From Pseudomonadota bacterium (GTDB taxonomy: Bacteria > Pseudomonadota > Gammaproteobacteria > Xanthomonadales > SZUA-38): 64,000 nt of DNA. Positions 11,452-27,508 of the stretch are shown in pieces (the stretch's first letter is position 1; the number at the start of each line of letters is the position of its first letter). The stretch is from positions 29,579 through 93,578 of the forward strand of contig JBCCCR010000022.1 of NCBI GenBank assembly GCA_039033415.1. Reading direction: 5' to 3'. The notes beneath the pieces were generated by a model that ran no database searches, was not told the DNA's origin, and was given only the letters and a program-made list of their open reading frames with translations. A program made the position numbers and the translations under genes.

Positions 11452-11692
11452 GCCGACGCTCCTTCCTGGATGCGGTGAGTGTGCCCTGATGACCAGGCGA
11501 TTGCACTTATCGACAACCCCTTAAGTGCAACTGATCCAGGGATTAAGTTGTCTACACTGGGGACGGCGCCTGACTCTCCCGCGTTCGGGCTGAGCGACGC
11601 CACAGGAAAAACGGCCTAAATCCAGAGGTTCGGCAGGTTTTCTCAACCTCCTGCGCCTTGCCTGGCCCACGGACTCGTTCTACTCTTTGCTT

Positions 11693-13222: not shown

Positions 13223-13272
13223 ACCACACCTCGTCAATTGCGCCGCGGATCTCATGACGATCCGTCAGGCAT

Positions 13273-13306
13273 AAAAAAAGCGGCTTACTCGAGCCGCTTT
13301 TTTTTT
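13273..13306. terminator. bidirectional rho-independent terminator
   Basis: A7 run, stem 'agcggct' (13279-85) paired with 'agccgct' (13292-98), 6-nt loop, then a T9 run (13298-13306). It lies between convergent genes. Confidence 0.8.
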
Positions 13307-13346
13307 CGGGGAATCGGTTCCGACACCGCCCTGAAGCGTTAAGACA

Positions 13347-14003
13347 TTAACCTGCCAGAATGTCACCGAGCTGCTGGCCAAGACTCTTGCACGACGCGTT
13401 CTTGGTCCGGGCAATCAGCGGCAGCGGCACACCCAAAGCGGGCACCACCGACGTGCCGGTGGCCTCCGTGCTGATGATGCCCATGGGCTCGCCGGCCTGG
13501 ATATCCCAGATGGACGCTTCATAGTTGGAGTTGTTGTCCCAGCTCAAGACCCCGAGACAGCCACCGCCGGCCGGGCTGAGCGTACAGGTCATCACCCCCT
13601 GCTTGTTGCGGGCCTCCGACTCGCCGTGGATCCACACCAGGTAGCGGACGTTGAGGTCTTCCACTCGCTTGGCGATGACCGGCTCTTCGAGCAGCACGTT
13701 CACCAGCTCCGCCCGGGTGGGCGCCAGCCGCGGCTCAAACCAGGGAAACATCTCGTCTTTGAAGCGGTTCTCGCTGATGATATTGACGTCACCGGCCCGG
13801 GATCGGAGCTGGCCGAAGAGGCACTCGGAGAAGCTGTCTTCGGTCTCGATCACAGCGTCCTGGCGATTGGTGAGGATCACCACCGACTCGTCGCCGCTCA
13901 TATCCAGATCGGTTTGCATAAACTCTTCCACGCGCGCCGTGACGCAACCCGACAGCGCGACCGTCAGCGCGGCCGTGACACCCAGTCGAAAACCTGGATT
14001 CAT
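13347..14003 (-). CDS. hypothetical lipoprotein
   Basis: Lipobox 'ALSGC' after 'MNPGFRLGVTAALTV'. ATG 14003 forms an ATGA overlap with the upstream lipoprotein gene stop. Confidence 0.7.
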   Translation of the reverse strand: MNPGFRLGVTAALTVALSGCVTARVEEFMQTDLDMSGDESVVILTNRQDAVIETEDSFSECLFGQLRSRAGDVNIISENRFKDEMFPWFEPRLAPTRAELVNVLLEEPVIAKRVEDLNVRYLVWIHGESEARNKQGVMTCTLSPAGGGCLGVLSWDNNSNYEASIWDIQAGEPMGIISTEATGTSVVPALGVPLPLIARTKNASCKSLGQQLGDILAG

Positions 14004-14638
14004 GGTGAACTTACCTCGTTTGGTGGCAGCGGCGTGCGCCACTGCTGCTTTTCAACAACGCCTTTGAACTGGCTGACCATGGCGGCGGCGGCATCGCGCA
14101 GTGCGAGCGTCGTCGCCTCGCCGAGTGACTGGTTGCCGTTAACAAACCGCTTGCGGTCTTTGCCGTAGGCGACAAATGGCCAGTACCCCACAATGGTGCC
14201 CTGGTCGGAATAGAGCCGGATCTGATACTTCATCGAGACGGCGTAAAAGTTGGTGGCGGTCTCAGCGGGCGACAGAAACGCATATTCTTCGAGGACCGGT
14301 TCGAGCACAAGGTCGACGCCATAGCTGGAGTTGTCCTGATCTGGGCTGGGTACCGCGATGGTCTGCTCGAACAGCGCGCCGAAGATTTTGTCGTACACCG
14401 CCTGCTGTTTGGTGCCCAGCTCGAAGGTCAGCTTGCCTTCCTCTTCGGTGTAAACGTACTGGCTGAACTGCGGGCTGTAATAGATGCCGGCGCTGAAGGG
14501 CAGGGGCTGCACAACCGGCTCAGGAAACTCCTGCTCGATGACCACCGTGCCGGCGCAGCCGGCGAGGGTCAAAGCCATTAGCAGGGCGAACAACAGACGG
14601 ATGGGACGCCGCTCTCGGCGTTGCGGATGGATCCTCAC
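14000..14638 (-). CDS. hypothetical lipoprotein
   Basis: 'LLFALLMALTLAGC' lipobox. GTG start. Translationally coupled to the downstream lipoprotein gene. Confidence 0.7.
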   Translation of the reverse strand: MRIHPQRRERRPIRLLFALLMALTLAGCAGTVVIEQEFPEPVVQPLPFSAGIYYSPQFSQYVYTEEEGKLTFELGTKQQAVYDKIFGALFEQTIAVPSPDQDNSSYGVDLVLEPVLEEYAFLSPAETATNFYAVSMKYQIRLYSDQGTIVGYWPFVAYGKDRKRFVNGNQSLGEATTLALRDAAAAMVSQFKGVVEKQQWRTPLPPNEVSSP

Positions 14639-14876
14639 GGGTGGGCTGTCCCTGTCGATTTGCTCATGCTGCTGCGTGGCCTCATCTGAAAGTGACCGCT
14701 CGTCGGGCGAAAAGGTTGCATTTAAGTCTACACCTAAGCACCACGAAGCGCTCCGTACAGTAAAAGTATCGCGTTACCCGTCGTAAGGCCGTGAATTGGC
14801 GGGAAATCGCCCACAGCCACTACGAAGCTTTTAGTATTTTGCTGAGCGGCCCTGCGTCTTGCAACTATTTGGCGAT

Positions 14877-14882
14877 TATAAT
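14877..14882 (+). promoter_or_regulatory. perfect -10 hexamer TATAAT upstream of the nine-gene operon (no convincing -35)
   Basis: Consensus TATAAT in a GC-rich divergent intergenic region, 49 nt upstream of ATG 14931. The nearest TTGCAA (14859-64) is only 12 nt away, which is non-canonical spacing. Confidence 0.3.
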
Positions 14883-14930
14883 GGTCTGGTACATAGCGCA
14901 AACGCGACACGACCCGTGGAGAGCAACACC

Positions 14931-16097
14931 ATGAAGCAGCCGGTGCAAAACCTGTCTAGGACGTTGGGAACGCCTTTGGCGAACCCCGTAGCTACGCCTG
15001 CACGCTGGCTCCCGGTGTGTTTGCTGGCGCTGGCCGCCGGGTGCGCCAGCCAGAGCCAAATGCAGCAGCAGCAAATGCCGCAGATGCCGTCTCCTTCGGC
15101 CTCCCCGCCGTCGCCACCGTCGATGCCGTCGTCGTCGCCGAGCATGCCGTCGCCCTCGCCGAGCATGCCGACCCCGAGTATGCCGTCACCCAGCATGCCA
15201 ACACCGTCGATGCCAACACCTTCGGGCGCCCCTTCTTCACCGAGTCCAGAGCAGTCGCCAAGTGCCCAGCCGCCGGGTTCCAGCAGCCCGAGTGAAGCCG
15301 GCGCGGAGTCGCAGGCGAACGCCGAGTCGAGCGCGGCTGGCGGTACCAGCGAGCTGGAAGTCTTAGAGCCGGAAGAGTCCGAAGCGTCCGCGGATGCGAG
15401 CGCTGAGCCCACCTGGGACGAAGGAGAAAGCGGTGGCGAAGAGTCGCTCGCCGACGCCTCCGAGAGCTCGGCGGGTGGCGGTGCATCGGGCGGCGAAGAG
15501 TCGCTGGAAGAAGAATCACTCGCTGAGGCCGGTGAAGCCGGTGCCAGCGGCGGCGCGCCGGGCGGCGGCGACCCCACCAGCGGCGAGATGGCTGCCGCCA
15601 CCGGCGGCATGCCGGGCGGCGCTTCACCGGCGGGTACGGAGCAGTCGCTTGAGGCGGAGCTGAATAGTTCGCTCGAGATCTTCGAAGGTGAAATGGAACG
15701 CACCATCACCATCCTGGCCTCCAATGACGATGCTGACGGCGATGCGCAGGGCGCCGCCGGCGGCAACGGCGGCGAAGAGGAAGAGGGTGGGCTGTTTGAT
15801 CAGACGGGTGCCGGCGCTGAGCTGGTGCTGGTAAACGGCGATCCCTCGCTGCTGCCGGGTAGTTCCCAGGACGTGGATGGTGAGACGGGCGACGAACCGA
15901 TCACCGGCCGGCCCGGGCTGGAAGGCGGGGGTACGGCCAACGAAACTTATCCTCGCGTACCGGGCGATGTGGGTGACGGCCTGGACGACGACGTGGTCGC
16001 GCGTCAGATTCGTGAAGCAGCGATCAACGAAGACGACCCGTCGCTGCGTGAGAAGCTGTGGGAAGAGTACCGCAACTACAAAAAATCCATTCAATGA
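14931..16097 (+). CDS. lipoprotein with Pro/Ser/Met tandem repeats and a long polyacidic, low-complexity region
   Basis: Lipobox 'LALAAGC', then 'PSMPSSSPSMPSPSPSMPTPSMPSPSMPTPSMPTPS', then about 250 aa rich in E/D/G/S/A. The C-terminus 'DDVVARQIREAAINEDDPSLREKLWEEYRNYKK' looks more ordered. Start at ATG 14931 with GGAGA 8 nt upstream (the track start is TTG 14859). Confidence 0.7.
   Translation: MKQPVQNLSRTLGTPLANPVATPARWLPVCLLALAAGCASQSQMQQQQMPQMPSPSASPPSPPSMPSSSPSMPSPSPSMPTPSMPSPSMPTPSMPTPSGAPSSPSPEQSPSAQPPGSSSPSEAGAESQANAESSAAGGTSELEVLEPEESEASADASAEPTWDEGESGGEESLADASESSAGGGASGGEESLEEESLAEAGEAGASGGAPGGGDPTSGEMAAATGGMPGGASPAGTEQSLEAELNSSLEIFEGEMERTITILASNDDADGDAQGAAGGNGGEEEEGGLFDQTGAGAELVLVNGDPSLLPGSSQDVDGETGDEPITGRPGLEGGGTANETYPRVPGDVGDGLDDDVVARQIREAAINEDDPSLREKLWEEYRNYKKSIQ
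15069..15225 (+). repeat. imperfect in-frame tandem repeat (15-21 nt units containing 'ATGCC(G/A)') encoding (P-S-M-P-S/T)n
   Basis: 'atgcc' recurs at 15075, 15084, 15123, 15144, 15165, 15180, 15195 and 15210. The last four are spaced exactly 15 nt apart. Confidence 0.75.
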
Positions 16098-16105
16098 GGA
16101 ACGTC

Positions 16106-17311
16106 ATGTCAAGGATCGTTTCAGTGACCGTTGTGCTGGCCCTTGCGGCTGCCCTGTCCGCTTGCACCACCGCCACGGTGAAAACCGTTAACTCGGTTCA
16201 AATCGACAAAGCCGATCAGGAGCTGGCTCAGGATCAGCTGCTGGATGTGGGTCTGCAGATTTTTAATCCGGGCATACCCGCCGACCAGGAAGACCGGGAA
16301 GACGACAACATCTATCCGGCCGTCCGCCGGGCTGAGGCTCGCTACGTCCCTTACCTGCTGCGGACCACGCTCGAGGAGTCTAACCAATGGGGGGCGGTGC
16401 GGGTGCTGCCGGGTGAAGACCCGGCCTCTGAGGTCACCGTCACCGGCGAGATTCTCCACTCCGACGGCGTGGTGCTGGAGGTGCGCGTCACCGCCACCGA
16501 CGCCACCGGGCGCACCTGGTTGGATAAGAAGTACGCTGACCTGGCGACCCAGTTTGCCTATCGCGACGACGTGGAGTACGACGGCGATGCGTTTCAGGAT
16601 CTGTACAACCTGGTCGCCAACGATCTGCGCAAGGCGCGCGACGAGCTGAGCCGTGAGGAGCTCAAGGAGATCCGCACCGTGGCCAATCTGCGCTACGCGG
16701 CGGAGGTGGCGCCGGACGCGTTCGGCAACCACCTGACCGAAGATCGCAACGGAGACGTGGTCATAAACCGCCTGCCCGCGTACGACGATCCGATGATGCG
16801 CCGCGTGGCCCGCATCCGGGAGAGTGAGTACCTGTTTATCGATACGGTCGATCAGCAGTACGCGGTGTTTTATCAGCAGATGGATCCCAGCTACGACCAG
16901 TGGCGTCGATACTCCTACGAGGAGACGCTGGCCGAAGAAGACATCAAGCGCTCCGCCCGGACCCGTATGCTCGCCGGCCTGCTGGGTGTGGTGGGTGGCG
17001 CGGCCATCTCGTCCAACGCCAACGGCAACTGGGCCCAGAACAGTATCGGCAACGCTGCCGCGCTGGGCGGCCTATACGCCCTGAAGCAGAGCTACGACAC
17101 CTATCAGGAAGCCAAGATCCACCAGGAGGCGCTCAAAGAACTCGCCGCGTCGTTCGACGCTGAGGTCAAGCCGATTGTGCTGGAGGTGGAAGGTGAGGTC
17201 GTGAAACTCAACGGCACCCTCGACGCGCAGTACCAGGAATGGCGTCGGCTGATGCGGGAGATCTACGAAGCCGAGACCGGCATACCCGTAGCGGACGCGG
17301 TTCCGCAATAA
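16106..17311 (+). CDS. hypothetical lipoprotein
   Basis: 'VVLALAAALSAC' lipobox. ATG 16106 has GAGGA 5 nt upstream. The in-frame ATG 16094 (ATGA overlap with the upstream stop) is an alternative start. Confidence 0.7.
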   Translation: MSRIVSVTVVLALAAALSACTTATVKTVNSVQIDKADQELAQDQLLDVGLQIFNPGIPADQEDREDDNIYPAVRRAEARYVPYLLRTTLEESNQWGAVRVLPGEDPASEVTVTGEILHSDGVVLEVRVTATDATGRTWLDKKYADLATQFAYRDDVEYDGDAFQDLYNLVANDLRKARDELSREELKEIRTVANLRYAAEVAPDAFGNHLTEDRNGDVVINRLPAYDDPMMRRVARIRESEYLFIDTVDQQYAVFYQQMDPSYDQWRRYSYEETLAEEDIKRSARTRMLAGLLGVVGGAAISSNANGNWAQNSIGNAAALGGLYALKQSYDTYQEAKIHQEALKELAASFDAEVKPIVLEVEGEVVKLNGTLDAQYQEWRRLMREIYEAETGIPVADAVPQ

Positions 17312-17322
17312 GCGACGACCCC

Positions 17323-19545
17323 ATGCCCACTGATCCGACAACGCTGGAACAGTTCAGCGACCGGCAGCCTTTGCCTGGCGCGAGCGGAAATAGCCTGCTC
17401 GCGAACCTGGACGGCGCACCGGTCCGGCTGCGACGGCTGCCGCTGACACCCGACGCGGTGACGGCGGCCCGGCAGCAGCTGGCGGCTGCGGCCGGCATCA
17501 GCCATCCAGCGATTGTGCCGGACAGCGGTCTGCTGGTGCAGGACGGTGAGGTTTGGGTATGGCGGCCGGAGCTGGAAGGTGAGGCCCCCGTCAGCGACGA
17601 CCAGGAACAGCGGCTGGCGTTCGCCCAGCGCACCTGTGAAGCGCTGGGGCTGATTCATCGAGCGGGCTTTGCGCATGGCGCGGTGGACGGCATACACCTC
17701 ATCATGACGCCCGCGGACGGCCTGAAGCTCGTCGATCCGACGCTCGACGCCGCAGCGACACCCACCCAGGACATGCAGGCACTCGGACGCGTGCTGTTTG
17801 AGTGGGAGACGGGGCAGAGCGCCCAAAATCTTCAGCAGCCGGAGCTGGCCGCCGCGCTCACGCGGCAAGCGGCCCAGCGGCCGCTACCGCCTCGTCTGGC
17901 GCGTCTGATCCTGCAGCTGCTATCCGAAGAACCGCCGGCCGCAACGCTGGCGGCTGAAGACCTCGAGGACATCCGGCTGAGTCTCGCCCGAGCGGATGCC
18001 CAGGTGCAGGCGCACTGGCAAACCGAATCGTATGAGCCGGTCAAAGCCGTCAAGGGCTCGACACCCTCGATTAGCCCGGTGCAACCCGCCGCGCAGCCAC
18101 AATCGAAGGCGCCAGCTTTTATCGCTACCGCCGCCGCCTGCGTGCTGCTGCTGGCGATTGTATTTGTCGTTGGCGTCCTGCCCGACCGGGTTGCCCCCGA
18201 ACCCGAGCGCGTCGCTGAGACCGCGGCCGCTGCGCCCGAGCCGGCAGCGCCCGAACCGCCGCCGCCGGCGGCGGCGCCGCTGAGTCAGGCTGACCTTGAG
18301 CGTCTGCTGCGCCAGCGTGAGTCGGCTCAGGCGGTGCTGGACGAGCTGATCAATCTCCAGCTGGAGCTGGAGGAGCAGCAGGTGGAACGCTGGGCCGAAC
18401 GGCGGTTTGGTGAGGCGCGCGATCTGGCCGCGTCCGGCGATGAGCCGTTTCGCGAGCAGCAGTTCGAGCTCGCGGAAAAGATTTATGCCGATGCGTTTCA
18501 GGAGATGCAGGCTGTTGCAGCGCTTCGTCCCATCATTGTGGCCGAGGCGCTGGAGCGAGGACGTTACGCGTTCGACCGGGGCAACGCGGCGGACGCGAGC
18601 GACGCCTACTCGCTGGCGCTGGCGATCGATCCGGAAAACGAGCAGGCCAAGATCGGTAAAGCCCGGTCCGAAACGCTGGATCGGGTCAAAGCGCTGATGG
18701 CGGACGTCATGGAGGCGCGCGACGAGCTCCGCCTCAGCGACGCCCTGTCGCTGCTAGACCAGGTGCTGGCACTCGACCCCCTGACCGAAGAAGCGGTCGG
18801 GCTCAAAAGTGAACTGCAAACCGAGCTGGCTGACGCGCGCTTTCGCAACGCGATGTCGGACGGGCTGGCCGCGCTGTCGGCAGGCCGCTGGCAGGAGGCG
18901 CGCACGGCGCTGAATCGGGCCGCCAAGCTTGAGCCGGCCAACCGCGCGCCGAAAGACGCGCTGATCGAACTGGAGCGGCGGCAGCGCGATGCGCTGGTCG
19001 CCCGCGATATTGGCAAAGCCCGCACGGCGCAGGATCAGGAGCGCTGGGAAGCGGCCATCAAACACTTCGACGATATCTTAAAGCGCGACCCCAACTCGCG
19101 GGTGGCCCAGGAAGGGCGTGCCCAGGCGGTTGAGCGGCAGGATCTGGACCAGCGGCTCACCTCGCTGCTGCGAGACCCGGCCCAGCTCTGGTCCAACGAG
19201 GGCCGCTCGACGGCGCGTTCGTTGCTTTACGACGCGCGGGCGATCGAGGGTCCTGGCCCGCGGCTGCGCGACCAGCTCGTCCGCCTCGACCAACAGATCG
19301 ACCTTGCGGCGCGGCCGCAGCCGGTGACGCTGGTGTCCGACAACGCCTGCAACGTGGTGGTCTATAAGGTCGCGCGCCTCGGGCAGTTCGACCGGCACCA
19401 GCTTGAGCTGCTGCCCGGCCGCTATACGGCGGTCGGCACGCGCGACGGCTACCGCGATGTCCGCGTCGAATTTATGGTCCCGGCCGACCAGGCGCCGCAG
19501 CCGGTCTCGCTGCGCTGCGAAGAACAGGTCCTGGCGCGAGGCTAA
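17323..19545 (+). CDS. Hanks-kinase-like (apparently catalytically dead) domain - TM helix - coiled coil/TPR repeats - PEGA-like C-terminus
   Basis: Kinase-like blocks 'ISHPAIV', 'LGLIHRAGFAHGAVDGIHLIM', 'LKLVDPTL' and 'ALGRVLFEWETG'. TM helix 'FIATAAACVLLLAIVFVVGVL'. At least 4 TPR-like units ('..ALAIDPENEQA..', '..LALDPLTEEA..', '..AKLEPANRAP..', '..ILKRDPNSRVA..'). Start at ATG 17323. Confidence 0.7.
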   Translation: MPTDPTTLEQFSDRQPLPGASGNSLLANLDGAPVRLRRLPLTPDAVTAARQQLAAAAGISHPAIVPDSGLLVQDGEVWVWRPELEGEAPVSDDQEQRLAFAQRTCEALGLIHRAGFAHGAVDGIHLIMTPADGLKLVDPTLDAAATPTQDMQALGRVLFEWETGQSAQNLQQPELAAALTRQAAQRPLPPRLARLILQLLSEEPPAATLAAEDLEDIRLSLARADAQVQAHWQTESYEPVKAVKGSTPSISPVQPAAQPQSKAPAFIATAAACVLLLAIVFVVGVLPDRVAPEPERVAETAAAAPEPAAPEPPPPAAAPLSQADLERLLRQRESAQAVLDELINLQLELEEQQVERWAERRFGEARDLAASGDEPFREQQFELAEKIYADAFQEMQAVAALRPIIVAEALERGRYAFDRGNAADASDAYSLALAIDPENEQAKIGKARSETLDRVKALMADVMEARDELRLSDALSLLDQVLALDPLTEEAVGLKSELQTELADARFRNAMSDGLAALSAGRWQEARTALNRAAKLEPANRAPKDALIELERRQRDALVARDIGKARTAQDQERWEAAIKHFDDILKRDPNSRVAQEGRAQAVERQDLDQRLTSLLRDPAQLWSNEGRSTARSLLYDARAIEGPGPRLRDQLVRLDQQIDLAARPQPVTLVSDNACNVVVYKVARLGQFDRHQLELLPGRYTAVGTRDGYRDVRVEFMVPADQAPQPVSLRCEEQVLARG

Positions 19546-19604
19546 GTGATGACCAGGAGCAGTGACATCCCCACAGAGAACGCCGGCACGGCGAGGAGCG
19601 GCGC

Positions 19605-21722
19605 ATGAGCGACCTGAAAACGCCCGCGCAGCAGAGCTCGGGTGACGATCACTTTGAGGTCATCACGCCGACCGACTTTCAGCCGGCGGCGGCGACCACC
19701 AGCCGCGGCATTGGCGGCGTGTCGTGGTGGACCGTCGGCAGCTTCGCGCTGCTCGGACTGGTGGCGGGCTGTGCCCTATACCTCTTCACCGCGCGCTCGG
19801 TCCTGATCGACATCGCGCCGGCCCCCGACTCGATGGAGCTGGACGGGGCGCTGCTGTTTCCGCTGAAGCTCGGCGAGCGGTGGCTGCTGCACCCTGGCGG
19901 CTACACGGTGGAGGCGACCCTCGAGGGCTATCATCCGCTCAAGACCGACTTTGCCGTGCTGTCGGAAGACGGCCAGCAGTTTGCCTTCACCATGGACAAG
20001 CTGCCTGGACTGCTCAGCGTGACGGCCGGTGACGTGCCCGGTGCCCACGTCTGGGTGGACGGTCAGCCGCTGAGCCCCGCGCCGCTCAGCCAGCACGAGC
20101 TGGAACCCGGCACCTATCAGCTGACGGTGCGCGCGCCCCGCTATCGCGACTTCGACCAGACCATCGACATCGAGGGCAAGCAGATCGAGCAGACCGTTGC
20201 GGCGGTCCTCGAGCCCGCCTGGGCCGACGTTCAGCTGACGAGCACCCCGGCCGGGGCCACGCTTTACGTGGACGGCGATCCGGTGGGGGAAACGCCGCTG
20301 ACGGCGCAGATCCTCGAAGGCGAACGCGACCTGTCGCTGCAGCTTGAGGGCTACAAAGATTGGGCCACCGGCCTCACCCTGACCGCCGGCGCTGAGCTGG
20401 CGCTGCCGACGGTGGAGCTGACGCCGGCTGACACCCTGGTCACCGTGGCCAGCACCCCTAGCGGTGCCAGCGTGACCGTGGAAGGCGAGTATCGCGGACA
20501 AACGCCGCTGCGGCTGGCGCTGGCGCCGGGCCGTTCTTACCGCATGGGCTTCACTCGGGCTGGCTACCAGTCGCGGCAGCGCGTCGTGGACGTGGCTGAG
20601 GGTGATGACACCCGGCTCAACATCCGGCTTCAGCCAATCCTCGGGGTTGTGCAGATGGCGGGTGAACCCGAAGATGCCGAGGTTTATGTCGACGGCGTAT
20701 TCCAGGGCCGGCTGAACGACCGCTTCGAGCTGGCGGCGCATCCGCAGCGCATCGAGGTGCGGCGCGAGGGCTATCAGCCTTACAGCACCACCGTGACGCC
20801 GAGCCCAAACCAGGAGCAGCTGCTGAACGTGGAGCTCACCAGTTTCGCGGACGCGGCGGCTGAGGCCAATCCAGACACCCTGGTGACCAGCACCGGCTAT
20901 GAGCTCAAGCTGATCCGGCCCAGCGGCGTGTATCGCCTGGGCAGCCCGCGGCGCGAGCAGGGTCGGCGCTCCAACGAATTCATCCGCCAGGTCCAGCTGG
21001 AGAAGCCGTTTTATCTCGGCACCCGGGAAGTGACCAACCTTCAGTTTAAGGCGTTCAGCTCGAGCCACGACTCCGGCATCGCGAGCACCAACAGCCTGAG
21101 CCTGAAGGATCAGCCGGTGGTGCGGATCAGCTGGGATCAGGCTGCGCGGTTCTGTAACTGGCTCAGCGCCAAAGAAGGCCTGCCCGCGGCTTATCAGGAG
21201 AGCAATGGCGTGATGGTGCCGGTCACTCCGATGACCATCGGCTATCGGCTGCCCAGCGAAGCGGAGTGGGCTTATGCTGCCCGCTATGGCGGCGGCTCCC
21301 AGTCCGCGCGCAAATATCCGTGGGGTGAGCAGATGCCGCCGCCGGGCGCCGCCGGCAACTTTGCCGGCACGGAGTCCAGCAGTGAGGTGGAGCGCGGCCT
21401 GTCGAACTACACCGACGAATATCCCGTCAGCGCGCCGGTGGCGCGTTACGGCAGCAGCTCGCTGGGGCTGCACGATCTGGGTGGCAACGTGCACGAGTGG
21501 ATTCACGACTACTACCTGATCAGCAGCAGCGGCCTCGGCAAATCGCCGCTCGATCCGCTGGGCGCGGCGGAAGGCAACAATCACGTGATCCGCGGCTCCA
21601 GCTGGCGCAGCGGCAGCATCACGGAGCTACGTTTGGCCTGGCGCGACCAGGGCTCCGGCGGCAAGGACGACATCGGCTTCCGCGTGGCGCGCTACATCGA
21701 CCAGGGCGGAGGAACGCCATGA
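19605..21722 (+). CDS. TM-anchored protein with about 5 PEGA-like repeats and a C-terminal FGE/SUMF1-type (formylglycine-generating-enzyme-like) domain
   Basis: TM helix 'WWTVGSFALLGLVAGCALYLF'. PEGA-like units such as 'TSTPAGATLYVDGDPVGETP...LEGYKDW' and 'ASTPSGASVTVEGEYRGQTP...RAGYQS'. FGE-like blocks 'VTNLQFKAF', 'ISWDQAARFCNWLS', 'YRLPSEAEWAYAARYG', 'GNVHEWIHD' and 'VIRGSSWRS'. GAGGAG SD 7 nt upstream. Confidence 0.8.
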   Translation: MSDLKTPAQQSSGDDHFEVITPTDFQPAAATTSRGIGGVSWWTVGSFALLGLVAGCALYLFTARSVLIDIAPAPDSMELDGALLFPLKLGERWLLHPGGYTVEATLEGYHPLKTDFAVLSEDGQQFAFTMDKLPGLLSVTAGDVPGAHVWVDGQPLSPAPLSQHELEPGTYQLTVRAPRYRDFDQTIDIEGKQIEQTVAAVLEPAWADVQLTSTPAGATLYVDGDPVGETPLTAQILEGERDLSLQLEGYKDWATGLTLTAGAELALPTVELTPADTLVTVASTPSGASVTVEGEYRGQTPLRLALAPGRSYRMGFTRAGYQSRQRVVDVAEGDDTRLNIRLQPILGVVQMAGEPEDAEVYVDGVFQGRLNDRFELAAHPQRIEVRREGYQPYSTTVTPSPNQEQLLNVELTSFADAAAEANPDTLVTSTGYELKLIRPSGVYRLGSPRREQGRRSNEFIRQVQLEKPFYLGTREVTNLQFKAFSSSHDSGIASTNSLSLKDQPVVRISWDQAARFCNWLSAKEGLPAAYQESNGVMVPVTPMTIGYRLPSEAEWAYAARYGGGSQSARKYPWGEQMPPPGAAGNFAGTESSSEVERGLSNYTDEYPVSAPVARYGSSSLGLHDLGGNVHEWIHDYYLISSSGLGKSPLDPLGAAEGNNHVIRGSSWRSGSITELRLAWRDQGSGGKDDIGFRVARYIDQGGGTP

Positions 21723-22042
21723 ACCAAAATGCCTTAAAGATCATGCTGGCTATGCTGCTCGGTCTCGGCCTTACAGGGCTGGCGGCCGGTCAGGCTGACG
21801 ACGCCGCCGACAAGTCGGAGACGGCCGAGGAGGCCAACGAATCCGCCGCGGAGTTCGACCCCGCGGTATGCCAGGAGCCGCCGGCGGAAGGGGAGACCCT
21901 ACCGTCCGAATGCGCGGAGCTGGCGGGCGAAGGGCCTACCAACGACGTCGACGCGGGTGAAATGCGCGCCACGATGCGTCGCTTCGTCCCGAGCGAACAA
22001 ATCTCGGAAGACAGCTCAGTGGCGTTTCCCAACGACATCTGA
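21719..22042 (+). CDS. small secreted acidic protein (107 aa)
   Basis: ATG 21719 overlaps the upstream stop (ATGA). Signal peptide 'MNQNALKIMLAMLLGLGLTGLAAG', then a D/E-rich region with 2 Cys. The track ORF starting at 21497 is an upstream extension that overlaps the FGE-like gene. Confidence 0.6.
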   Translation: MNQNALKIMLAMLLGLGLTGLAAGQADDAADKSETAEEANESAAEFDPAVCQEPPAEGETLPSECAELAGEGPTNDVDAGEMRATMRRFVPSEQISEDSSVAFPNDI

Positions 22043-22104
22043 GCTGACTGCGAGCCTCATTTAAGTATTGATACCCAAGCGGTTTTTATAGGAATAAGAT
22101 CAAC

Positions 22105-22932
22105 ATGGACGGTACTGTCAGGACACCCACAACGATGAAAAAAGGTTTCCCGGTTGAGTTTGTGTTTCAGCTTTTTGCGCTGCTCGTGTCGGTGCTGATT
22201 GTGCATACCGTGTACGTCACGGTGGTGCGCCCGGCGGCCGCTGAGGTGATGCAGGCGCAGACGCAGGCGATCGCAGAAGACCCCAACTACGTGCCGGAGC
22301 GATCCGTTTACGTTCTGATCCGGGACTTTGAGCAGGAGGCCTGTTTTGTGCTGCTGTTCTGGGCGCTGGCGATTATGGCCTACAAAGCCTATCGGGGTTT
22401 GCGGGAGCGCCGGCTGCTCGAACAGGTGCTTATGCCCGTCGGCGACGGCATCAGTATCCTGCCGGAAGACACGCGCGAATACTCGCGCCCACTGCAGGCG
22501 CTGCCCGATCAGGAGCGCCGCTTTCTATTGCCCAAGGTGCTGCTGACGGCGCTGCACCGCTTTCGCTCCACGCGGGACATCCAGAGCGTGGCGACCACGG
22601 TGCGCGAGCTCTGTGAGCAGGAGGCGGAGCGCCTCGAATCGGAGCTCTCGATGGTGCGCTACATCGCCTGGGCGATTCCCTCCATTGGATTTATCGGCAC
22701 CGTGCGCGGGATCGGTGAAGCGCTGGCGCAGGCCCACAAGGCCGTGGAGGGTGACATCACCGGCGTCACGGACTCGCTAGGCGTGGCGTTTAACTCCACG
22801 TTTATTGCGCTGGTCCTGAGTATCTTTCTGATGTTTCTGATGCACCAGCTCCAGCTGATGCAGGAGCGCCTGTCGCTGGACGCGCAGGACTACGCCGAAG
22901 AAAACCTGATCGGGAAGCTGCGTGAGTCGTAA
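22105..22932 (+). CDS. MotA/TolQ/ExbB-family proton-channel protein
   Basis: N-terminal TM helix, a long cytoplasmic segment, then a TM2/TM3 pair 'YIAWAIPSIGFIGTVRGIGEAL' ... 'GVAFNSTFIALVLSIFLMFLMHQ'. This mirrors the ExbB/TolQ '..P.(L/I)G(L/F).GTV.GI' signature. Confidence 0.8.
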   Translation: MDGTVRTPTTMKKGFPVEFVFQLFALLVSVLIVHTVYVTVVRPAAAEVMQAQTQAIAEDPNYVPERSVYVLIRDFEQEACFVLLFWALAIMAYKAYRGLRERRLLEQVLMPVGDGISILPEDTREYSRPLQALPDQERRFLLPKVLLTALHRFRSTRDIQSVATTVRELCEQEAERLESELSMVRYIAWAIPSIGFIGTVRGIGEALAQAHKAVEGDITGVTDSLGVAFNSTFIALVLSIFLMFLMHQLQLMQERLSLDAQDYAEENLIGKLRES

Positions 22933-22974
22933 GCTCGCCAGCAGCAGTGTCTCCAACCGCGGGGTGAGCCGCCC

Positions 22975-24357
22975 GTGATCGGCGTTGTCGAACTCAATGA
23001 CGCCGGCCTGCTGGTAGCGGCTGACGGCACCGAGCTGCTGGAGAGCCCGGGCTACCTGGCGTTTGAAGGCAAAAACCTTCATGTCGGGGCGGCCGCGGCG
23101 CAGCGCGTCAAGCTGATCCCCACGCAGACCCAGTACGCCTTCTGGGAATACTTTGCGAGCGAAACGCTCCCGACGGGCCAGCTGCCCCAGGCGGGCCTGA
23201 AACACGCGGATCTCGCCTATCGTCACCTGGAGCGCCTGTGGAGCATCGTCGGCAAGGACCTCAAGCAGCTGGTGCTGTGTGTACCGGCCGACTGGGGCCG
23301 GGCGGAGCTCGGTCTGCTGCTGGGGATCTGCCAGACGCTCAAGATTCCCGTGCGCGCGCTGGTCAATGTGGCGCTGGCGGCCAGCGCGATGCCCCAGCCC
23401 GGGCGTACGCTGATGCACCTGGACATCCATCTGCACCGGCTGGTGCTGAGCACGCTGGACCAGGGGCCGTGGCTGTCGCAGGCGGCGGTTGAGAGCACCC
23501 GAGAGGTGGGCCTGCTGCGGCTGCTCGACGGCTGGGCGTTTGCAGCGGCCGGCGCGTTTGTGCAGGCCACCCGCTTTGACCCGCTCCACCAGGCGCAGAC
23601 CGAGCAGCAGCTGTTCGATCGGCTGCCGGCGTGGCTGGCGGCGGCAAGCGGGCGCCGCCAGCTGTCGCTCAGCGTAGATCACAACGGCAATACGGTTGAG
23701 GCGCGGGCGCCTTCACAAATCTTCCGGGATGCCGCGGAACCCCTGTATCGCCGCATGGCGGAATTTGTCGGCTCACACCTTGCCGGCGTTGACCCGGTGT
23801 CGCTGGTGATCAGCCCGCGGCTTGCGGTTCTGCCGGGTGTCAGCGAGGAGCTGGCCGCGCTGCCGAACGTCCAGCTGATTCCGGGCGGACGGCTGGACTT
23901 CGCCGGCGTGCTGAATCGACTGTACCTGCCGCGGGACGCCGGCAAGGGTGGTGCGGTGAACGTCACCCGCATCCCCTGGTTCAAATCGGAGGACCAGGCG
24001 AGCCATGAGGCGCCGGGCAGCGCCCGCGCTTCGGCCCCGACCCATCTGCTCCACGAGCACACCGCCTACCGGCTGGCGGCGGGACAGCCGTTTGTAGTCG
24101 GCGCTGGCGTCCAGCAAAACGATGGGCTGAAGCTGGGCGGGGGCGGCGTGGGTGAGCGGCACTTCAGGCTGCGCCAGGAAAGTACCGGTTGGCTGCTGGA
24201 GGATCTGTCCGGCGGCGCCACCCGCATCAACGGCGAGCCGCTGGAGGGCCGCCGACCGGTTTCCGCCGGGGACCGCATCCAGCTTGGCAACCCGGCCCAG
24301 GAGCTGATCCTCATCGCCGAAGCCGCCACCGTGAGGTCTCCCAGTGCCGCGTCGTAA
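22975..24357 (+). CDS. cytoplasmic Hsp70/actin-like (ASKHA-fold-like, degenerate) protein with a C-terminal FHA-like domain
   Basis: The N-terminal region parallels Hsp70 blocks: 'IGVVELNDAGLLVAA' vs 'IGIDLGTTNS', 'LVLCVPADWGRAELGLLLGICQTLKIPVRALVNVALAASA' vs 'AVITVPAYFND..AG..V.RIINEPTAAALA', and 'LMHLDIHLHRLVLS' vs 'VLVFDLGGGTFDVS'. The C-terminus 'ERHFRLRQESTGWLLEDLSGGATRINGEPLEGRRPVSAGDRIQLG' is FHA-like. GTG start. Confidence 0.6.
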   Translation: MIGVVELNDAGLLVAADGTELLESPGYLAFEGKNLHVGAAAAQRVKLIPTQTQYAFWEYFASETLPTGQLPQAGLKHADLAYRHLERLWSIVGKDLKQLVLCVPADWGRAELGLLLGICQTLKIPVRALVNVALAASAMPQPGRTLMHLDIHLHRLVLSTLDQGPWLSQAAVESTREVGLLRLLDGWAFAAAGAFVQATRFDPLHQAQTEQQLFDRLPAWLAAASGRRQLSLSVDHNGNTVEARAPSQIFRDAAEPLYRRMAEFVGSHLAGVDPVSLVISPRLAVLPGVSEELAALPNVQLIPGGRLDFAGVLNRLYLPRDAGKGGAVNVTRIPWFKSEDQASHEAPGSARASAPTHLLHEHTAYRLAAGQPFVVGAGVQQNDGLKLGGGGVGERHFRLRQESTGWLLEDLSGGATRINGEPLEGRRPVSAGDRIQLGNPAQELILIAEAATVRSPSAAS

Positions 24358-25435
24358 GCGCCAATTTAACGCCTTCAACCTGTCGTTTCTGGACATCATG
24401 TCCTGCGGCTTCGGCGCGGTGATCCTGTTTTTTGTGATCATCAATCACGCCCAGGACGAGCGGAACGACGACCTGACGGCGGACCTCTCCGGTGAGGTCA
24501 ACCTGGTGGAAACCGAGCTCAAGCTGGAGCAGCTGAACCTGGCGAAACTGCAGAACGCGCTGACGGAGGTCGAAGAGGAGATCGTGACGGCCCAGGGGGC
24601 TTCCGATCGTCTGCTGTCCGAGGTGGACGACACCGAGAAGGAGCTGTCGGAGCAGGACGCGGAGACCGCCGCCAAGCGCGAGCATATGAACCAGCTCATC
24701 ACCGATCTGAAGGCGCTGGAAAAGGAGCGCGACCGGCTACAGCAGCTCGAGACCGAAGGTGGCGAGAGCGTTCGCAGCTACACCGGCGAAGGTGACCGGC
24801 AGTACCTGACCGGGCTTCGGGTTGGCGGCCGGCGAATTGCCATCTTTGTGGACGCGTCAGCCTCCATGCTGGACGAGACGATCGTCAACGTGATCCGGCG
24901 CCGCAACCTGCCGGACGAGCAAAAGCTGCGGGCGGACAAGTGGCAGCGGGTTGTTCGGACCGTTGACTGGATTACGACGCAGGTGCCGGAAAACGCGCAG
25001 TTTCAGGTGTATACCTTCAATACCAAGGCCACGCCGGCGCTCGAGGGCACCGACGGCCAGTGGCTGGACGTGGAAAAAGGGCGCCGCCTGGATGAGGCGG
25101 TGGACCGGATTCGCAGCATCATTCCCACCGGCGGCACGCGGCTTCACTCGGTCACTGAAACCATCAACCGGATGAATCCACTGCCGGACAACGTGTTTCT
25201 GCTGGTGGACGGGTTGCCGACCCAGGGGCTGAATCCGGCCACCAAACGCGGCACCGTCACGTCCCGAGAGCGGGAGCGGTTTTTTTACGACGCCACCGCC
25301 GACCTGCCGATCGGCGTGCCGGTCAACACGATCCTGTTTCCCATGGAGGGTGATCCGAAGGCCGCCAGCGGCTTCTGGCGCCTGGCGATCCTCAGCGGCG
25401 GCTCGTTCATCACGCCCGCGAAGGACTGGCCATGA
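24344..25435 (+). CDS. ExbD/TolR/MotB-like TM helix (Asp17) - about 90-aa coiled coil - vWA domain protein, paralog 1
   Basis: 'MPRRKRQFNAFNLSFLDIMSCGFGAVILFFVII' has a basic N-terminus and a TM helix with Asp (codon 24392-94). Heptad-rich segment at about aa 45-137. vWA domain with MIDAS 'DASAS' (aa 170-174). GTG start has GAGG 7 nt upstream and a 14-nt overlap with the upstream gene. Confidence 0.75.
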   Translation: MPRRKRQFNAFNLSFLDIMSCGFGAVILFFVIINHAQDERNDDLTADLSGEVNLVETELKLEQLNLAKLQNALTEVEEEIVTAQGASDRLLSEVDDTEKELSEQDAETAAKREHMNQLITDLKALEKERDRLQQLETEGGESVRSYTGEGDRQYLTGLRVGGRRIAIFVDASASMLDETIVNVIRRRNLPDEQKLRADKWQRVVRTVDWITTQVPENAQFQVYTFNTKATPALEGTDGQWLDVEKGRRLDEAVDRIRSIIPTGGTRLHSVTETINRMNPLPDNVFLLVDGLPTQGLNPATKRGTVTSRERERFFYDATADLPIGVPVNTILFPMEGDPKAASGFWRLAILSGGSFITPAKDWP

Positions 25436-26430
25436 GCCGGCGTAAGCGCACCGTTGAGCAGGTCAGCCTGTCGTTCCTCGACTGCATCTGCTGTGGTTTC
25501 GGCGCCATCATTTTGCTGCTGGTGATCGTGAAAACGGCCGAGCCGATGATCATCGAGGAAACCCGCGAAGACTTAAGCGGGCTCCTGGCGGATCTGCAGG
25601 AGCAGCTGGTGCAAATCCGCGGCGAGACCACGGTACTGAACCGCGATCTGCAAACCAAAGAGGAACAGCTCTCGGAGGTTGAGGACAGCATCGCGCGCCT
25701 GCGGATGCTGCTGTCGACCCTCAAATCCGAGTTTGACTCCTCTTCCGATCAGAGTGACGCCATCACGGCGATCGAAAACCAGCTCAGCCGAGCCCGTCAG
25801 CAGCTCAACGAGATGCAGCGGCGGCTGAACTATTCCCGGGCGCTCGAAGACACCACGGTGGGTGGTATCCCGGTGGACAGCGAATACGTGATCTTTGTGA
25901 TCGACACCTCCGGCAGTATGCGCAACTTCGGCTGGGACCTCCTGCTGGATAAGATCATTGAGACCCTCGACGTTTACCCGGAAGTGAAGGGCATCCAGGT
26001 GCTCAACGACATGGGGGAATACATGTTCTCGCGCTATGCCGAGCGCTGGATTCCCGACTCGCCCGGGCGTCGTCGGGCGATCATCGATCGGATGAAAACC
26101 TGGAGCGCGTTTTCCAACTCCAGCCCCGTCGAGGGGATCACCAAGGCGATTGCCCGCTTCTACAAGCCGGGGCAAAAAATCAGCGTCTACGTTTTTGGCG
26201 ACGACTTTTCGGGCCGCTCCATCGCCCGCGTGATCGAGACGATCGACAAAATCAACCGTGAAGACGCTGAGGGCAACCGCCTGGTGCGGATCCACACGGT
26301 CGGCTTCCCGGTGTGGTTCACCGCGCCCCGCTCCCAGCAGGCATCGGTGGAGCGCTTTGCCACCCTGATGCGCCTGCTGGCGGAAAAAAATGGCGGAACC
26401 TTTGTCGGATTGAATTCTCACCAGCCGTAG
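25432..26430 (+). CDS. ExbD/TolR/MotB-like TM helix (Asp17) - coiled coil - vWA domain protein, paralog 2
   Basis: 'MSRRKRTVEQVSLSFLDCICCGFGAIILLLVIV' (Asp codon 25480-82). Coiled coil at about aa 45-133. vWA domain with MIDAS 'DTSGS' (aa 158-162). ATGA overlap with paralog 1. Confidence 0.75.
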   Translation: MSRRKRTVEQVSLSFLDCICCGFGAIILLLVIVKTAEPMIIEETREDLSGLLADLQEQLVQIRGETTVLNRDLQTKEEQLSEVEDSIARLRMLLSTLKSEFDSSSDQSDAITAIENQLSRARQQLNEMQRRLNYSRALEDTTVGGIPVDSEYVIFVIDTSGSMRNFGWDLLLDKIIETLDVYPEVKGIQVLNDMGEYMFSRYAERWIPDSPGRRRAIIDRMKTWSAFSNSSPVEGITKAIARFYKPGQKISVYVFGDDFSGRSIARVIETIDKINREDAEGNRLVRIHTVGFPVWFTAPRSQQASVERFATLMRLLAEKNGGTFVGLNSHQP

Positions 26431-26486
26431 TTCACGATACCCCTCGTTTTTCGTTCCCCCTTTTTTCTTAAACGGAGACTCACACC

Positions 26487-26765
26487 ATGAGCCGAGCATC
26501 TGCGCGCCACATTCTGGTGGCCACCGAAGCTGATTGTTTGAACCTGAAAAGTGAAATCGAAGGTGGCGCCGACTTTGCCGACGTCGCCCGCCAGCACTCC
26601 AGCTGCCCGTCGGGTCAGCAGGGTGGCAACCTGGGCGAGTTTGGCCCGGGTCAGATGGTGCCGGAGTTTGACCAGGTGGTGTTCAGCGCACCGGTCGGAG
26701 AGCTTCAGGGACCGGTCAAAACCCAGTTTGGTTACCACCTGCTCGAGGTCACCGAGCGCTCCTGA
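26487..26765 (+). CDS. ppiC: parvulin-type peptidyl-prolyl cis-trans isomerase C
   Basis: 92-aa protein. 'ARHILV...CPSGQQGGNLGEFGPGQMVPEFD...TQFGYHLLEV' matches PpiC over its full length. Confidence 0.9.
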   Translation: MSRASARHILVATEADCLNLKSEIEGGADFADVARQHSSCPSGQQGGNLGEFGPGQMVPEFDQVVFSAPVGELQGPVKTQFGYHLLEVTERS

Positions 26766-26808
26766 GCGTGACCAGATGCGTGGGCGCGGCATGTGGCCGC
26801 GCCCCGCC

Positions 26809-27438
26809 TTAGACGGCCGCTGAGGGCCGCTCAGCAATCTCGCTGTACCAACGCTTGAGGCTCGGCTGGTCTTCACCGGGTTCGAGCTTGATGCGTGCGG
26901 CAAACTCCACCAGGCAGAAGCCGGTGATGTCCGCATAGGTAAAATTCTCGCCGGCAAGGTACGGCGTTTCCGACAGCCGTTCGTCCATCGTCGCCAGGAA
27001 CGCTTCACTGCGCAGGCGACCGCGTTCTACCAGCTCTGGAATCTGCGCAAATGGCTGCGGTCCGGTCACGGATCGGTCGGCAAAAAACTTCGAGAAATTG
27101 CGAAACGACTCGGCGACGGCGCTGTAACCCTCCAGCGTGCAGCGATCATTCCAGTTGGTGACCAGCGCTTTTTCTTTGGCGCTGACCCCGAGCATCGGTG
27201 GTTCGGGATAAACCTCCTCGAGGTAGACCGCAATGGCGTTGTTTTCCGTGAGCGCCGTGCCGTCGTCCAGCTCCAGTACGGGAATGGTGCAGGCCGGGTT
27301 GATCGCTCGAAACGCCGGTTCAAACTGTGCTTTTCTGCCCAGATCGACCACCACGGTCTCGATGTTGAGCCCCTTCTCAGCGATCAGCATGCGGGCCCGG
27401 CGCGGGCTGGGGGCGTGGGCAAAGTCGTAAAACTTCAT
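26809..27438 (-). CDS. glutathione S-transferase family protein
   Basis: Thioredoxin-like N-terminus 'MKFYDFAHAPSPRRARMLIAEKGL..' with 'IPVLELDDG' and an alpha-helical C-domain. Length is typical for a GST. Confidence 0.8.
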   Translation of the reverse strand: MKFYDFAHAPSPRRARMLIAEKGLNIETVVVDLGRKAQFEPAFRAINPACTIPVLELDDGTALTENNAIAVYLEEVYPEPPMLGVSAKEKALVTNWNDRCTLEGYSAVAESFRNFSKFFADRSVTGPQPFAQIPELVERGRLRSEAFLATMDERLSETPYLAGENFTYADITGFCLVEFAARIKLEPGEDQPSLKRWYSEIAERPSAAV

Positions 27439-27508
27439 AGGGTCGATTCCTGTTCAGGGTAACGGGTTGGATCTGCCGGATCAGCCGCAGGGGTCATAAG
27501 CTCGCGGG

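Follow-up and report, generated by a model that had tools for sequence, protein, structure and literature searches.

Among ion-driven motors of the 5:2 type, no more than a handful are understood, namely MotAB, ExbBD, TolQR, GldLM and ZorAB, and in each of them the route by which force exits the membrane defines a major part of envelope biology. The closest described counterparts of the proteins considered here are the paired TPH-vWA proteins encoded beside tolQ homologs (Williams-Jones et al. 2025, Mol Biol Evol 42:msaf138; PMC12204202, Fig. 4c-d). They carry a TolR/ExbD-like trans-pore helix (TPH) with a conserved Asp, form mainly heterologous pairs, and were listed from Proteobacteria and Verrucomicrobia. 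AlphaFold 3 models of the Idiomarina loihiensis proteins placed the Asp residues within the ring of threonines in a TolQ-like pentamer; that study was computational only, gave no phenotype, and stated the function as unknown. Here we analyzed a pair of this kind, designated vWA1 and vWA2, and the genes around it in a stretch of 64,000 nucleotides from a Pseudomonadota bacterium (contig JBCCCR010000022.1, positions 29,579 to 93,578; the whole stretch is referred to as the window). Our preferred reading is that vWA1 and vWA2 are probably two non-identical B ("axle") subunits of a 5:2 motor driven by the proton motive force (PMF), with a TolQ/ExbB-like pentamer as the wheel and with heads that act on an envelope partner.

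The window pair shares with the published proteins an N-terminal transmembrane (TM) helix with an Asp, the lack of an SHLS motif, a C-terminal vWA domain, the heterologous pairing, and tight synteny with a tolQ-like gene in the company of no tolR or exbD gene. The vWA-headed kind of axle is thus already published, as a prediction, and the window pair fits that kind. An original prediction, made from the letters of the window, had called this a new stator architecture; that part of it fails, because PMC12204202 had already proposed the design, and the prediction rediscovered a published computational hypothesis. A literature search for other descriptions of the system returned only PMC12204202; it is not among the systems described by Kaur et al. 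2020, and the cluster of 11 genes presented below is not mentioned in the main text of PMC12204202. The family of putative vWA-headed axles is sizeable (2,703 clusters at 50% identity in a profile search at E<=1e-3) and experimentally uncharacterized, and it makes a good experimental target now that the accessory genes are defined.

Domain anatomy and paralogy of vWA1 and vWA2

In the open reading frame (ORF) list, vWA1 (24344..25435, + strand) encodes 363 aa from a GTG start and begins MPRRKRQ, and vWA2 (25432..26430, + strand) encodes 332 aa from an ATG start and begins MSRRKRT. The stop codon of vWA1 and the start codon of vWA2 overlap in an ATGA junction, in agreement with the coupling originally proposed. 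The two proteins share the start M-x-RRKR, followed by (N/S)LSFLDxxxCGFGA(V/I)IL with an Asp at residue 17, and the motifs NLSFLDIMSCGFGAVIL and SLSFLDCICCGFGAIIL are found in the pair. A recount returned the predicted 20 identities among the first 36 residues. BLASTP aligned vWA1 with vWA2 over residues 1-175 (E 1e-14), and comparison of their ortholog profiles by hhalign gave a probability of 99.6% (E 1.5e-23, 266 columns), with an alignment that is gap-free from residue 1 to ~132 and then continues through DxSxS into the vWA head. These alignments indicate that vWA1 and vWA2 are paralogs over their full length, with a similarity far above chance.

vWA1 consists of a basic N-terminus (residues 1-11), a TM helix of the trans-pore type (residues 12-34; 24377-24445), a coiled coil (residues 35-136; 24446-24751), a conserved linker with GDRQYLTG (residues 137-163; 24752-24832) and a vWA head (residues 164-363; 24833-25432) assigned by AlphaFold2 (AF2) and Foldseek. 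Its Asp17 codon (24392-24394) reads GAC, as predicted, and the metal ion-dependent adhesion site (MIDAS) motif DASAS lies at 24851-24865. vWA2 has the same layout, with a TM helix (residues 12-34; 25465-25533), a coiled coil (residues ~35-135; 25534-25836) and a vWA head (residues ~152-332; 25885-26427) that carries the MIDAS motif DTSGS (25903-25917); coordinate arithmetic puts its Asp17 codon at 25480-25482, again in agreement with the prediction. All of these features are on the + strand.

An AF2 model of vWA1, built from a 20-sequence alignment, contained a single unbroken helix over residues 20-136 and a confident alpha/beta domain over residues 164-363 (predicted local distance difference test score, pLDDT, ~90). 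The linker between them (residues 137-163) was modeled with low confidence, yet GDRQYLTG is near-invariant there. Foldseek matched the vWA1 head to solved vWA domains (E ~2e-7, prob 1.00), among them 4fx5, CLCA1, BatB and the anthrax-receptor vWA domain, and the vWA2 head is homologous to the vWA1 head by hhalign. Neither Pfam nor NCBIfam gave an OmpA or MotB match that would indicate a MotB plug or an OmpA-like peptidoglycan-binding domain, and the fold of the head is that of a vWA domain.

The heptad-rich stretch that the original prediction placed before the vWA domain was recovered. When hydrophobicity was averaged over the alignments for residues 36-136, the top period was exactly 3.50 residues in both paralogs, which is a heptad signature. 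The lengths of the proteins are tightly kept, at 362-366 aa in 76/81 vWA1 sequences and at 329-339 aa in 74/76 vWA2 sequences. The gap-free alignment, the 3.50-residue period and the tight lengths together agree with a fixed-length coiled coil whose chains are parallel and in register. Its ~100 helical residues, at 0.15 nm each, would span about 15 nm. The N-terminus is basic and the segment that follows the helix is acidic, which suggests an N-in/C-out topology, which would put the coiled coil and the heads in the periplasm.

The MIDAS is intact in both families, as had been predicted from DxSxS in the window proteins. DxSxS is invariant (81/81 vWA1 rows and 76/76 vWA2 rows); D170, S172, S174 and D289 of vWA1 were found in 81/81 rows and T265 in 79/81, and D158, S160, S162 and D257 of vWA2 in 76/76 rows. 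Among the distant relatives P0363, P0370, P0382, P0384, P0364 and P0329, four kept the SFLDxxxCGFGAV helix and had the first MIDAS Asp replaced by E or R. P0364 joins a multi-TM N-terminal region, BlaR1/peptidase M56-like by eye, to a vWA1-type head, and P0329, which has no TM helix, links a head of the vWA2 type to one of the vWA1 type, an arrangement that may be an assembly artefact. Weak PADLOC matches of both paralogs to LmuB and JetC were set aside as generic coiled-coil matches.

The putative trans-pore helix and the TolQ/ExbB-like A subunit

Conservation of the TM helix was examined in the orthologs. The motif SFLDxxxCGFGA, including Asp17, was present in 80/80 vWA1 and 80/80 vWA2 orthologs (160/160), so that the Asp conservation on which the original prediction depended is borne out. 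The hosts of the motif-bearing orthologs are Gammaproteobacteria (Halieaceae, Woeseiaceae, Cellvibrionaceae and Lysobacterales), Acidobacteriota, Desulfuromonadales and Myxococcales, the last three being additions to the hosts listed in PMC12204202. In both proteins, no region is better conserved than the helix, which has a column entropy of 0.74 bits in vWA1 and 0.53 bits in vWA2 versus 1.2-2.1 bits elsewhere. By comparison, the plain TM anchor of the PEGA/FGE protein encoded in the same cluster is the least conserved region of that protein (2.37 bits). Since it holds an invariant charged residue in a hyper-conserved helix, this segment looks as a functional pore helix would be expected to look.

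The candidate wheel is encoded two genes upstream of vWA1, where the original prediction had placed a MotA/ExbB-family gene. This A-subunit gene (22105..22932, + strand) is listed with 275 aa, and translation probably starts at Met11 (22135), because most orthologs are 264-266 aa long. The product matched Pfam MotA_ExbB (PF01618) with 56.8 bits (cutoff 22.9; E 2.5e-15). When its ortholog profile was compared with the PDB, it aligned to Escherichia coli TolQ, and T199 (22699-22701, + strand, in GTVRGI) and T232 (22798-22800, + strand, in FNSTF), both invariant among the A-subunit orthologs, fell on the threonines of TolQ GTVWGI and ALIATAIGL in the pore-lining TM helices. We take the matched TolQ residues to be T145 and T178, which line the pore and contact the TolR Asp. 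An AF2 model of the A subunit had a pLDDT of 85.5, and Foldseek ranked ExbB/TolQ chains on top (Acinetobacter baumannii TolQ, TM-score 0.73, root-mean-square deviation 3.5 A), MotA and PomA chains being clearly poorer matches. A four-TM, MotA-type topology, considered from the hydrophobic stretch 79-93, was dropped on the TolQ/ExbB-like fold given by AF2 and Foldseek; in the TolQ-like model this stretch falls inside the cytoplasmic domain.

We collected 82 related loci, 43 of which have full flanks. The A subunit, vWA1 and vWA2 were each present in 43/43 full-flank loci, as the predicted MotA/ExbB-family neighbor required, and vWA1 and vWA2 were adjacent in 82/82 loci. We then searched for another B subunit with phmmer in 5,995 ORFs of >=90 aa from the 82 loci and a 26-kb slice of the window, using E. 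coli ExbD, TolR and MotB as queries (of these sequences, only ExbD was checked against the PDB). No ExbD/TolR homolog was found within 10 kb at the 82 loci or in the window slice. A scan of the window and 80 loci with an ExbD-like regular expression returned a single ORF, in L059, in which the motif lies near the C-terminus, not in an N-terminal helix. The only two MotB-like ORFs were marginal matches, one in L030 (15774-16652, + strand; E 0.0014), ~4 kb downstream of vWA2, and one in L071 (7089-7895, + strand; E 0.027), directly after vWA2; they are possibly OmpA-like peptidoglycan binders tied to the system in a few lineages. Elimination thus leaves the vWA proteins as the sole candidates for the B position.

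These results suggest how the motor may be built. The TM helices of vWA1 and vWA2 would stand side by side in the pore of the A-subunit pentamer, with each Asp17 facing the T199/T232 threonine ring and taking up and releasing protons, and this chemistry would drive relative rotation of the pentamer and the vWA dimer. Beyond the membrane, the two chains would run on as a parallel coiled coil, in register, of ~100 residues and ~15 nm, followed by the conserved flexible linker and by two different vWA/MIDAS heads in the periplasm. On binding of the heads to an envelope partner, PMF energy would reach that partner as force or torque. The partner would most likely be a product of the cluster, such as a lipoprotein, the PEGA/FGE protein, or the small secreted protein described below, through the acidic peptide at its C-terminus. 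The original assignment of the pair as B subunits of a 5:2 motor is thus partly supported: the Asp, the synteny, the threonines and the lack of a rival B gene speak well, if indirectly, for the B position, and PMC12204202 arrived at the same model independently. What the analysis shows is the paralogy, the domain anatomy, the folds, the synteny and the conservation; we infer assembly in the pore as a heterodimer with 5:1:1 stoichiometry, rotation, adhesion by the heads, which partner they bind and what biological process is served.

Several observations weigh against this reading. The original prediction had matched the helix to those around ExbD D25, TolR D23 and MotB D32; the likeness is one of pattern, and homology is not demonstrable at the sequence level. 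A profile of the TM helix made from 91 sequences and searched against all PDB sequences retrieved no ExbD, TolR or MotB chain at E<=10, and Pfam returned neither ExbD nor anything else at E<=10 for the first 52 residues of each paralog. In hhalign, the helix aligned with the ExbD/TolR TM region Asp on Asp and FLDIM on FIDVM, with a probability of just 2%, and the Gly/Cys-rich CGFGA segment is family-specific, unlike known B-subunit helices. Residues 1-24 were of low confidence in the AF2 monomer of vWA1. The window pair is matched to the TPH-vWA class by described features, and the I. loihiensis reference proteins are only putative members of the same sequence family. Some distant members lack the MIDAS Asp, so metal-dependent ligand binding is not universal in the family. 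Finally, the model has to account for how an axle with two bulky heads could rotate in the presence of the peptidoglycan mesh, and we know of no phenotype for the vWA1/vWA2 system.

Two further search results bear on these comparisons. As a control for the profile search, an E. coli ExbD query retrieved TM-only TolR/ExbD peptides (E 2e-6); the only matches that the TM-helix profile returned in the PDB were to NDUFB4, which we rejected as chance matches. A homolog search seeded with a Pseudoalteromonadaceae ortholog contained no Idiomarina in the top 120 and many Alteromonadales; among the latter, Thalassomonas, Thalassotalea and Pseudoalteromonas have the family.

The failure of the helix to show significant similarity to ExbD, TolR or MotB would also be expected if the TM helices were ordinary anchors or TolA/TonB-like peripheral partners, with the vWA proteins outside the pore and the B subunit encoded elsewhere or missing. 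PMC12204202 itself describes a first family of vWA transducers that binds the motor exterior in a TolA-like manner. A plain anchor, however, would not keep a charged residue in this way, and here the helix is the most conserved part of the proteins, with the Asp in every ortholog examined; no ExbD/TolR gene was found within 10 kb in any related locus, and the TPH-vWA class lacks the SHLS/His motif that marks partners of the TolA/TonB type (PMC12204202), as do both window sequences. We consider such a peripheral role quite unlikely.

The stoichiometry poses a separate question. The solved B dimers of ExbD, TolR, MotB and PomB are all homodimers, and the vWA1 and vWA2 helices are near-identical around the Asp, which makes self-pairing conceivable; the cluster might then encode two separate homodimeric motors, A5:(vWA1)2 and A5:(vWA2)2, each with one kind of head. 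Against this stand the 1:1 and adjacent occurrence of the genes in all loci, their translational coupling, and the equal length and gap-free alignment of the two coiled coils. AglQ/AglS, from the Myxococcus Agl motor, also provide a precedent for heterologous B pairs. The published analysis likewise finds mainly heterologous pairs and models them paired (PMC12204202). Separate homodimeric motors are therefore unlikely and, like the peripheral role above and the defense role discussed below, less likely than a pair of non-identical B subunits in one motor.

When compared with ExbB-ExbD as well as TolQ-TolR, the A subunit has the same fold and both pore threonines, and the B candidates have the basic N-terminus, an Asp ~5 residues into a single TM helix, and a local string, FLDIM, that is similar to ExbD FIDVM. 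They differ in the helix, for which homology is not detectable, in the number of B genes, two and not one, and in the ~100-residue coiled coil and vWA domain that stand in place of the periplasmic ExbD/TolR alpha/beta domain. With a B subunit that would span the periplasm on its own, a separate transducer of the TonB/TolA type would not be needed. A large, multi-phylum family that fuses an axle, a coiled coil and a ligand-binding head thus raises the possibility of a third mode of coupling the PMF to the outer envelope, one that would need neither a TonB/TolA adaptor nor a peptidoglycan anchor.

A conserved envelope cluster around the pair

The vWA pair sits in a conserved envelope cluster of 11 genes, whose order and sequence are kept vertically across phyla at ~50% identity. 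Nine of the genes follow one another on the + strand, from 5' to 3', in the order lipoproteins C and D, kinase-like/TPR protein, PEGA/FGE protein, small secreted protein, A subunit, Hsp70-like/FHA protein, vWA1 and vWA2. Lipoprotein C (14859..16097, + strand, lipobox LAAGC) has a long Ser/Pro-rich, acidic region of low complexity and a conserved C-terminal ~120 aa, and its C-terminal region was found in 42/43 full-flank loci. Lipoprotein D (16058..17311, + strand, lipobox LSAC; 42/43 loci) has a hydrophobic segment rich in Gly and a helical region at the C-terminus, and it matched no known family in Pfam or NCBIfam. The next gene (17239..19545, + strand; 43/43 loci) encodes a kinase-like domain, a TM segment, a coiled coil, periplasmic TPRs recognized by Pfam, and a C-terminal beta-sandwich. 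It is followed by a gene (19605..21722, + strand; 43/43 loci) for a periplasmic protein with a TM segment, four PEGA domains (Pfam E 5e-50) and a C-terminal FGE-sulfatase domain of the SUMF1/GldK-like type (Pfam E 4.5e-40).

The small secreted protein (21719..22042, + strand) is an acidic protein of 107 aa with a signal peptide and a low-complexity body; by coordinates, its ATG (21719-21721) overlaps the stop codon of the upstream gene, which ends at 21722. Its C-terminal 19-mer (21983-22039) follows the pattern (F/Y)xP(S/T)Ex(I/V)(S/P)xDxx(V/I)(S/A)FPxDI-COOH. In 62/67 loci, from different phyla, a small protein with this 19-mer and a variable body is encoded directly 5' of the A-subunit gene, and the protein matched no Pfam, NCBIfam or PADLOC family. 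We speculate that the 19-mer might be a ligand of the vWA MIDAS or of the TPR domain.

Between the A-subunit gene and vWA1 lies the gene for a cytoplasmic protein with an Hsp70-like nucleotide-binding domain and a C-terminal FHA domain (22975..24357, + strand; 41/43 full-flank loci). The original prediction had named an Hsp70-like/FHA-like gene at this place, and the assignment holds on weak matches of its profile to the PDB (Hsp70 nucleotide-binding domain, E 5e-4; FHA, E 6e-4) and on FHA-like matches in Pfam and NCBIfam.

The remaining two genes encode lipoproteins A (231 aa, 13347..14042, - strand; 19/43 loci) and B (212 aa, 14000..14638, - strand; 22/43 loci). In the window they are divergent and upstream, and elsewhere they mostly lie on the same strand, directly downstream of vWA2. 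Lipoprotein A elsewhere has a median offset of +2.8 kb from vWA1 and is on the + strand in all loci, and lipoprotein B has a median offset of +2.2 kb and is on the + strand in 20/22 loci. Their placement in the window is a rearrangement inside a conserved system.

Few other genes travel with the cluster. The only other conserved downstream neighbors across the loci are lipoproteins A and B and, in a few loci, a PP2C gene; in the 26-kb slice of the window, no ORF beyond vWA2 recurred in at least five loci, and the genes that follow vWA2 look like ordinary metabolism (a peptidyl-prolyl isomerase by Pfam). A gene for a secreted TPR protein (11687-13222, + strand), whose C-terminus is weakly TonB_C-like (Pfam E 0.008, below the cutoff), precedes the cluster in at least 15 loci. 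A promoter and terminator scan of 13000-27500 gave counts inside the shuffle expectation.

Phosphorylation genes, related machines and hosts

Parts for Ser/Thr phosphorylation recur in the cluster, in different states of preservation. In the window, the kinase-TPR protein is a pseudokinase, with HRAGFAHGAVDG where HRDxKxxN is expected and no Pfam Pkinase match on its kinase-like N-domain, and the FHA domain (24050-24357) is degenerate, with GERH in place of SRxH. An intact kinase HRDxKxxN was observed in ten loci (L012, L015, L016, L018, L025, L029, L037, L038, L055 and L077), and the phosphothreonine-binding SRxH motif of FHA was kept in 10/10 of these. In lineages whose TPR protein is kinase-less or a pseudokinase, the window (17239-18150) included, the FHA domain is degenerate. 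L081 and L082 (on contigs of 1.4 and 6.5 Mb) have a kinase ortholog with a full Pkinase Pfam match, and an FHA-GAF-SpoIIE (PP2C phosphatase) gene at 12084-13721 (- strand) that is convergent on vWA2. With the PP2C gene and the full Pkinase match, the cluster in these loci holds a complete kinase/phosphatase/FHA module. The ancestral form of the motor may have been under cytoplasmic control by Ser/Thr phosphorylation, exerted by the kinase-TPR and Hsp70-like/FHA proteins, joined in some loci by PP2C; in the window lineage, the kinase and the FHA domain would both have degenerated.

Similar parts are known from the threonine phosphorylation pathway of type VI secretion (TagQRST-PpkA-PppA-Fha1), which also combines an outer membrane lipoprotein, a periplasmic COG1262 protein (TagR), a TM Ser/Thr kinase, a PP2C phosphatase (here in L081 and L082) and an FHA protein. 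COG1262 we take to be FGE/SUMF1, and PpkA carries a periplasmic vWA domain. The cluster differs from that pathway in that it contains no type VI secretion genes and has a PMF motor instead. The resemblance may serve as a lead.

Analogies to two other motors were noted. In GldLM/PorLM, the motor of type IX secretion and gliding, the B subunit GldM/PorM also spans the periplasm as a dimer, and a periplasmic protein of the FGE-sulfatase fold, GldK/PorK, belongs to the system; the PEGA/FGE protein of the window matched GldK partially (E 1e-26, 94 bits versus a cutoff of 350). GldM differs in having an Arg, not an Asp, and Ig-like domains in place of a coiled coil and a vWA domain, and the A subunit of the window is TolQ/ExbB-like, not GldL-like. 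The likeness to GldLM and GldK is one of analogy only. Zorya ZorAB, a 5:2 complex of the MotAB family, likewise carries a coiled-coil extension of great length. In Zorya, the tail is on ZorA and cytoplasmic, and ZorB has a peptidoglycan-binding domain, whereas the coiled coil here is on the B subunits and predicted to be periplasmic.

The Zorya comparison raises the alternative that the locus is a conflict/defense or pure signaling system, either Zorya-like or of the vWA/FHA/kinase "ternary" type, in which the channel would be a triggered, depolarizing effector. The A subunit does match PADLOC ZorA weakly (E 7e-5), in the MotA domain only, and conflict systems repeatedly contain vWA, FHA, Ser/Thr kinase, PP2C and FGE domains (PMC7159879). 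Scans with Pfam, NCBIfam and PADLOC, however, detected neither ZorC/D or any further Zorya component nor an effector of the nuclease or NTPase type. The vertical conservation across phyla, the wealth of lipoproteins and peptidoglycan-associated domains, the scarcity of conserved downstream neighbors and the metabolic look of the window genes past vWA2 argue in the same direction. A defense role is very improbable.

Beyond the assignment of vWA1 and vWA2 as B subunits, we tentatively consider that the pair might form the core of an undescribed trans-envelope machine of ~11 genes, in which the heads would pull or rotate a partner from the cluster (for example, the ...SFPVDI-COOH peptide or an outer membrane lipoprotein) under the gating of Thr phosphorylation. 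We regard this extension as possible rather than likely. If true, it would amount to a novel function of the envelope, comparable in scale to Tol-Pal or to the gliding/type IX secretion motors, with marine Gammaproteobacteria, Acidobacteriota and Desulfuromonadales as hosts. The accessory genes are concrete candidates for the load and the regulators of the motor, and culturable hosts, namely Microbulbifer, Thalassomonas, Thalassotalea and Pseudoalteromonas, make the hypothesis testable.

One locus, L042 (CAMAXE010000004.1), carries the cluster at ~47% identity on a 183-kb contig labeled "MAG: Klebsiella pneumoniae" (MAG, metagenome-assembled genome). In a comparison of the N-termini, its closest match was a Pseudomonadales MAG (L020), and the taxonomic label looks wrong.

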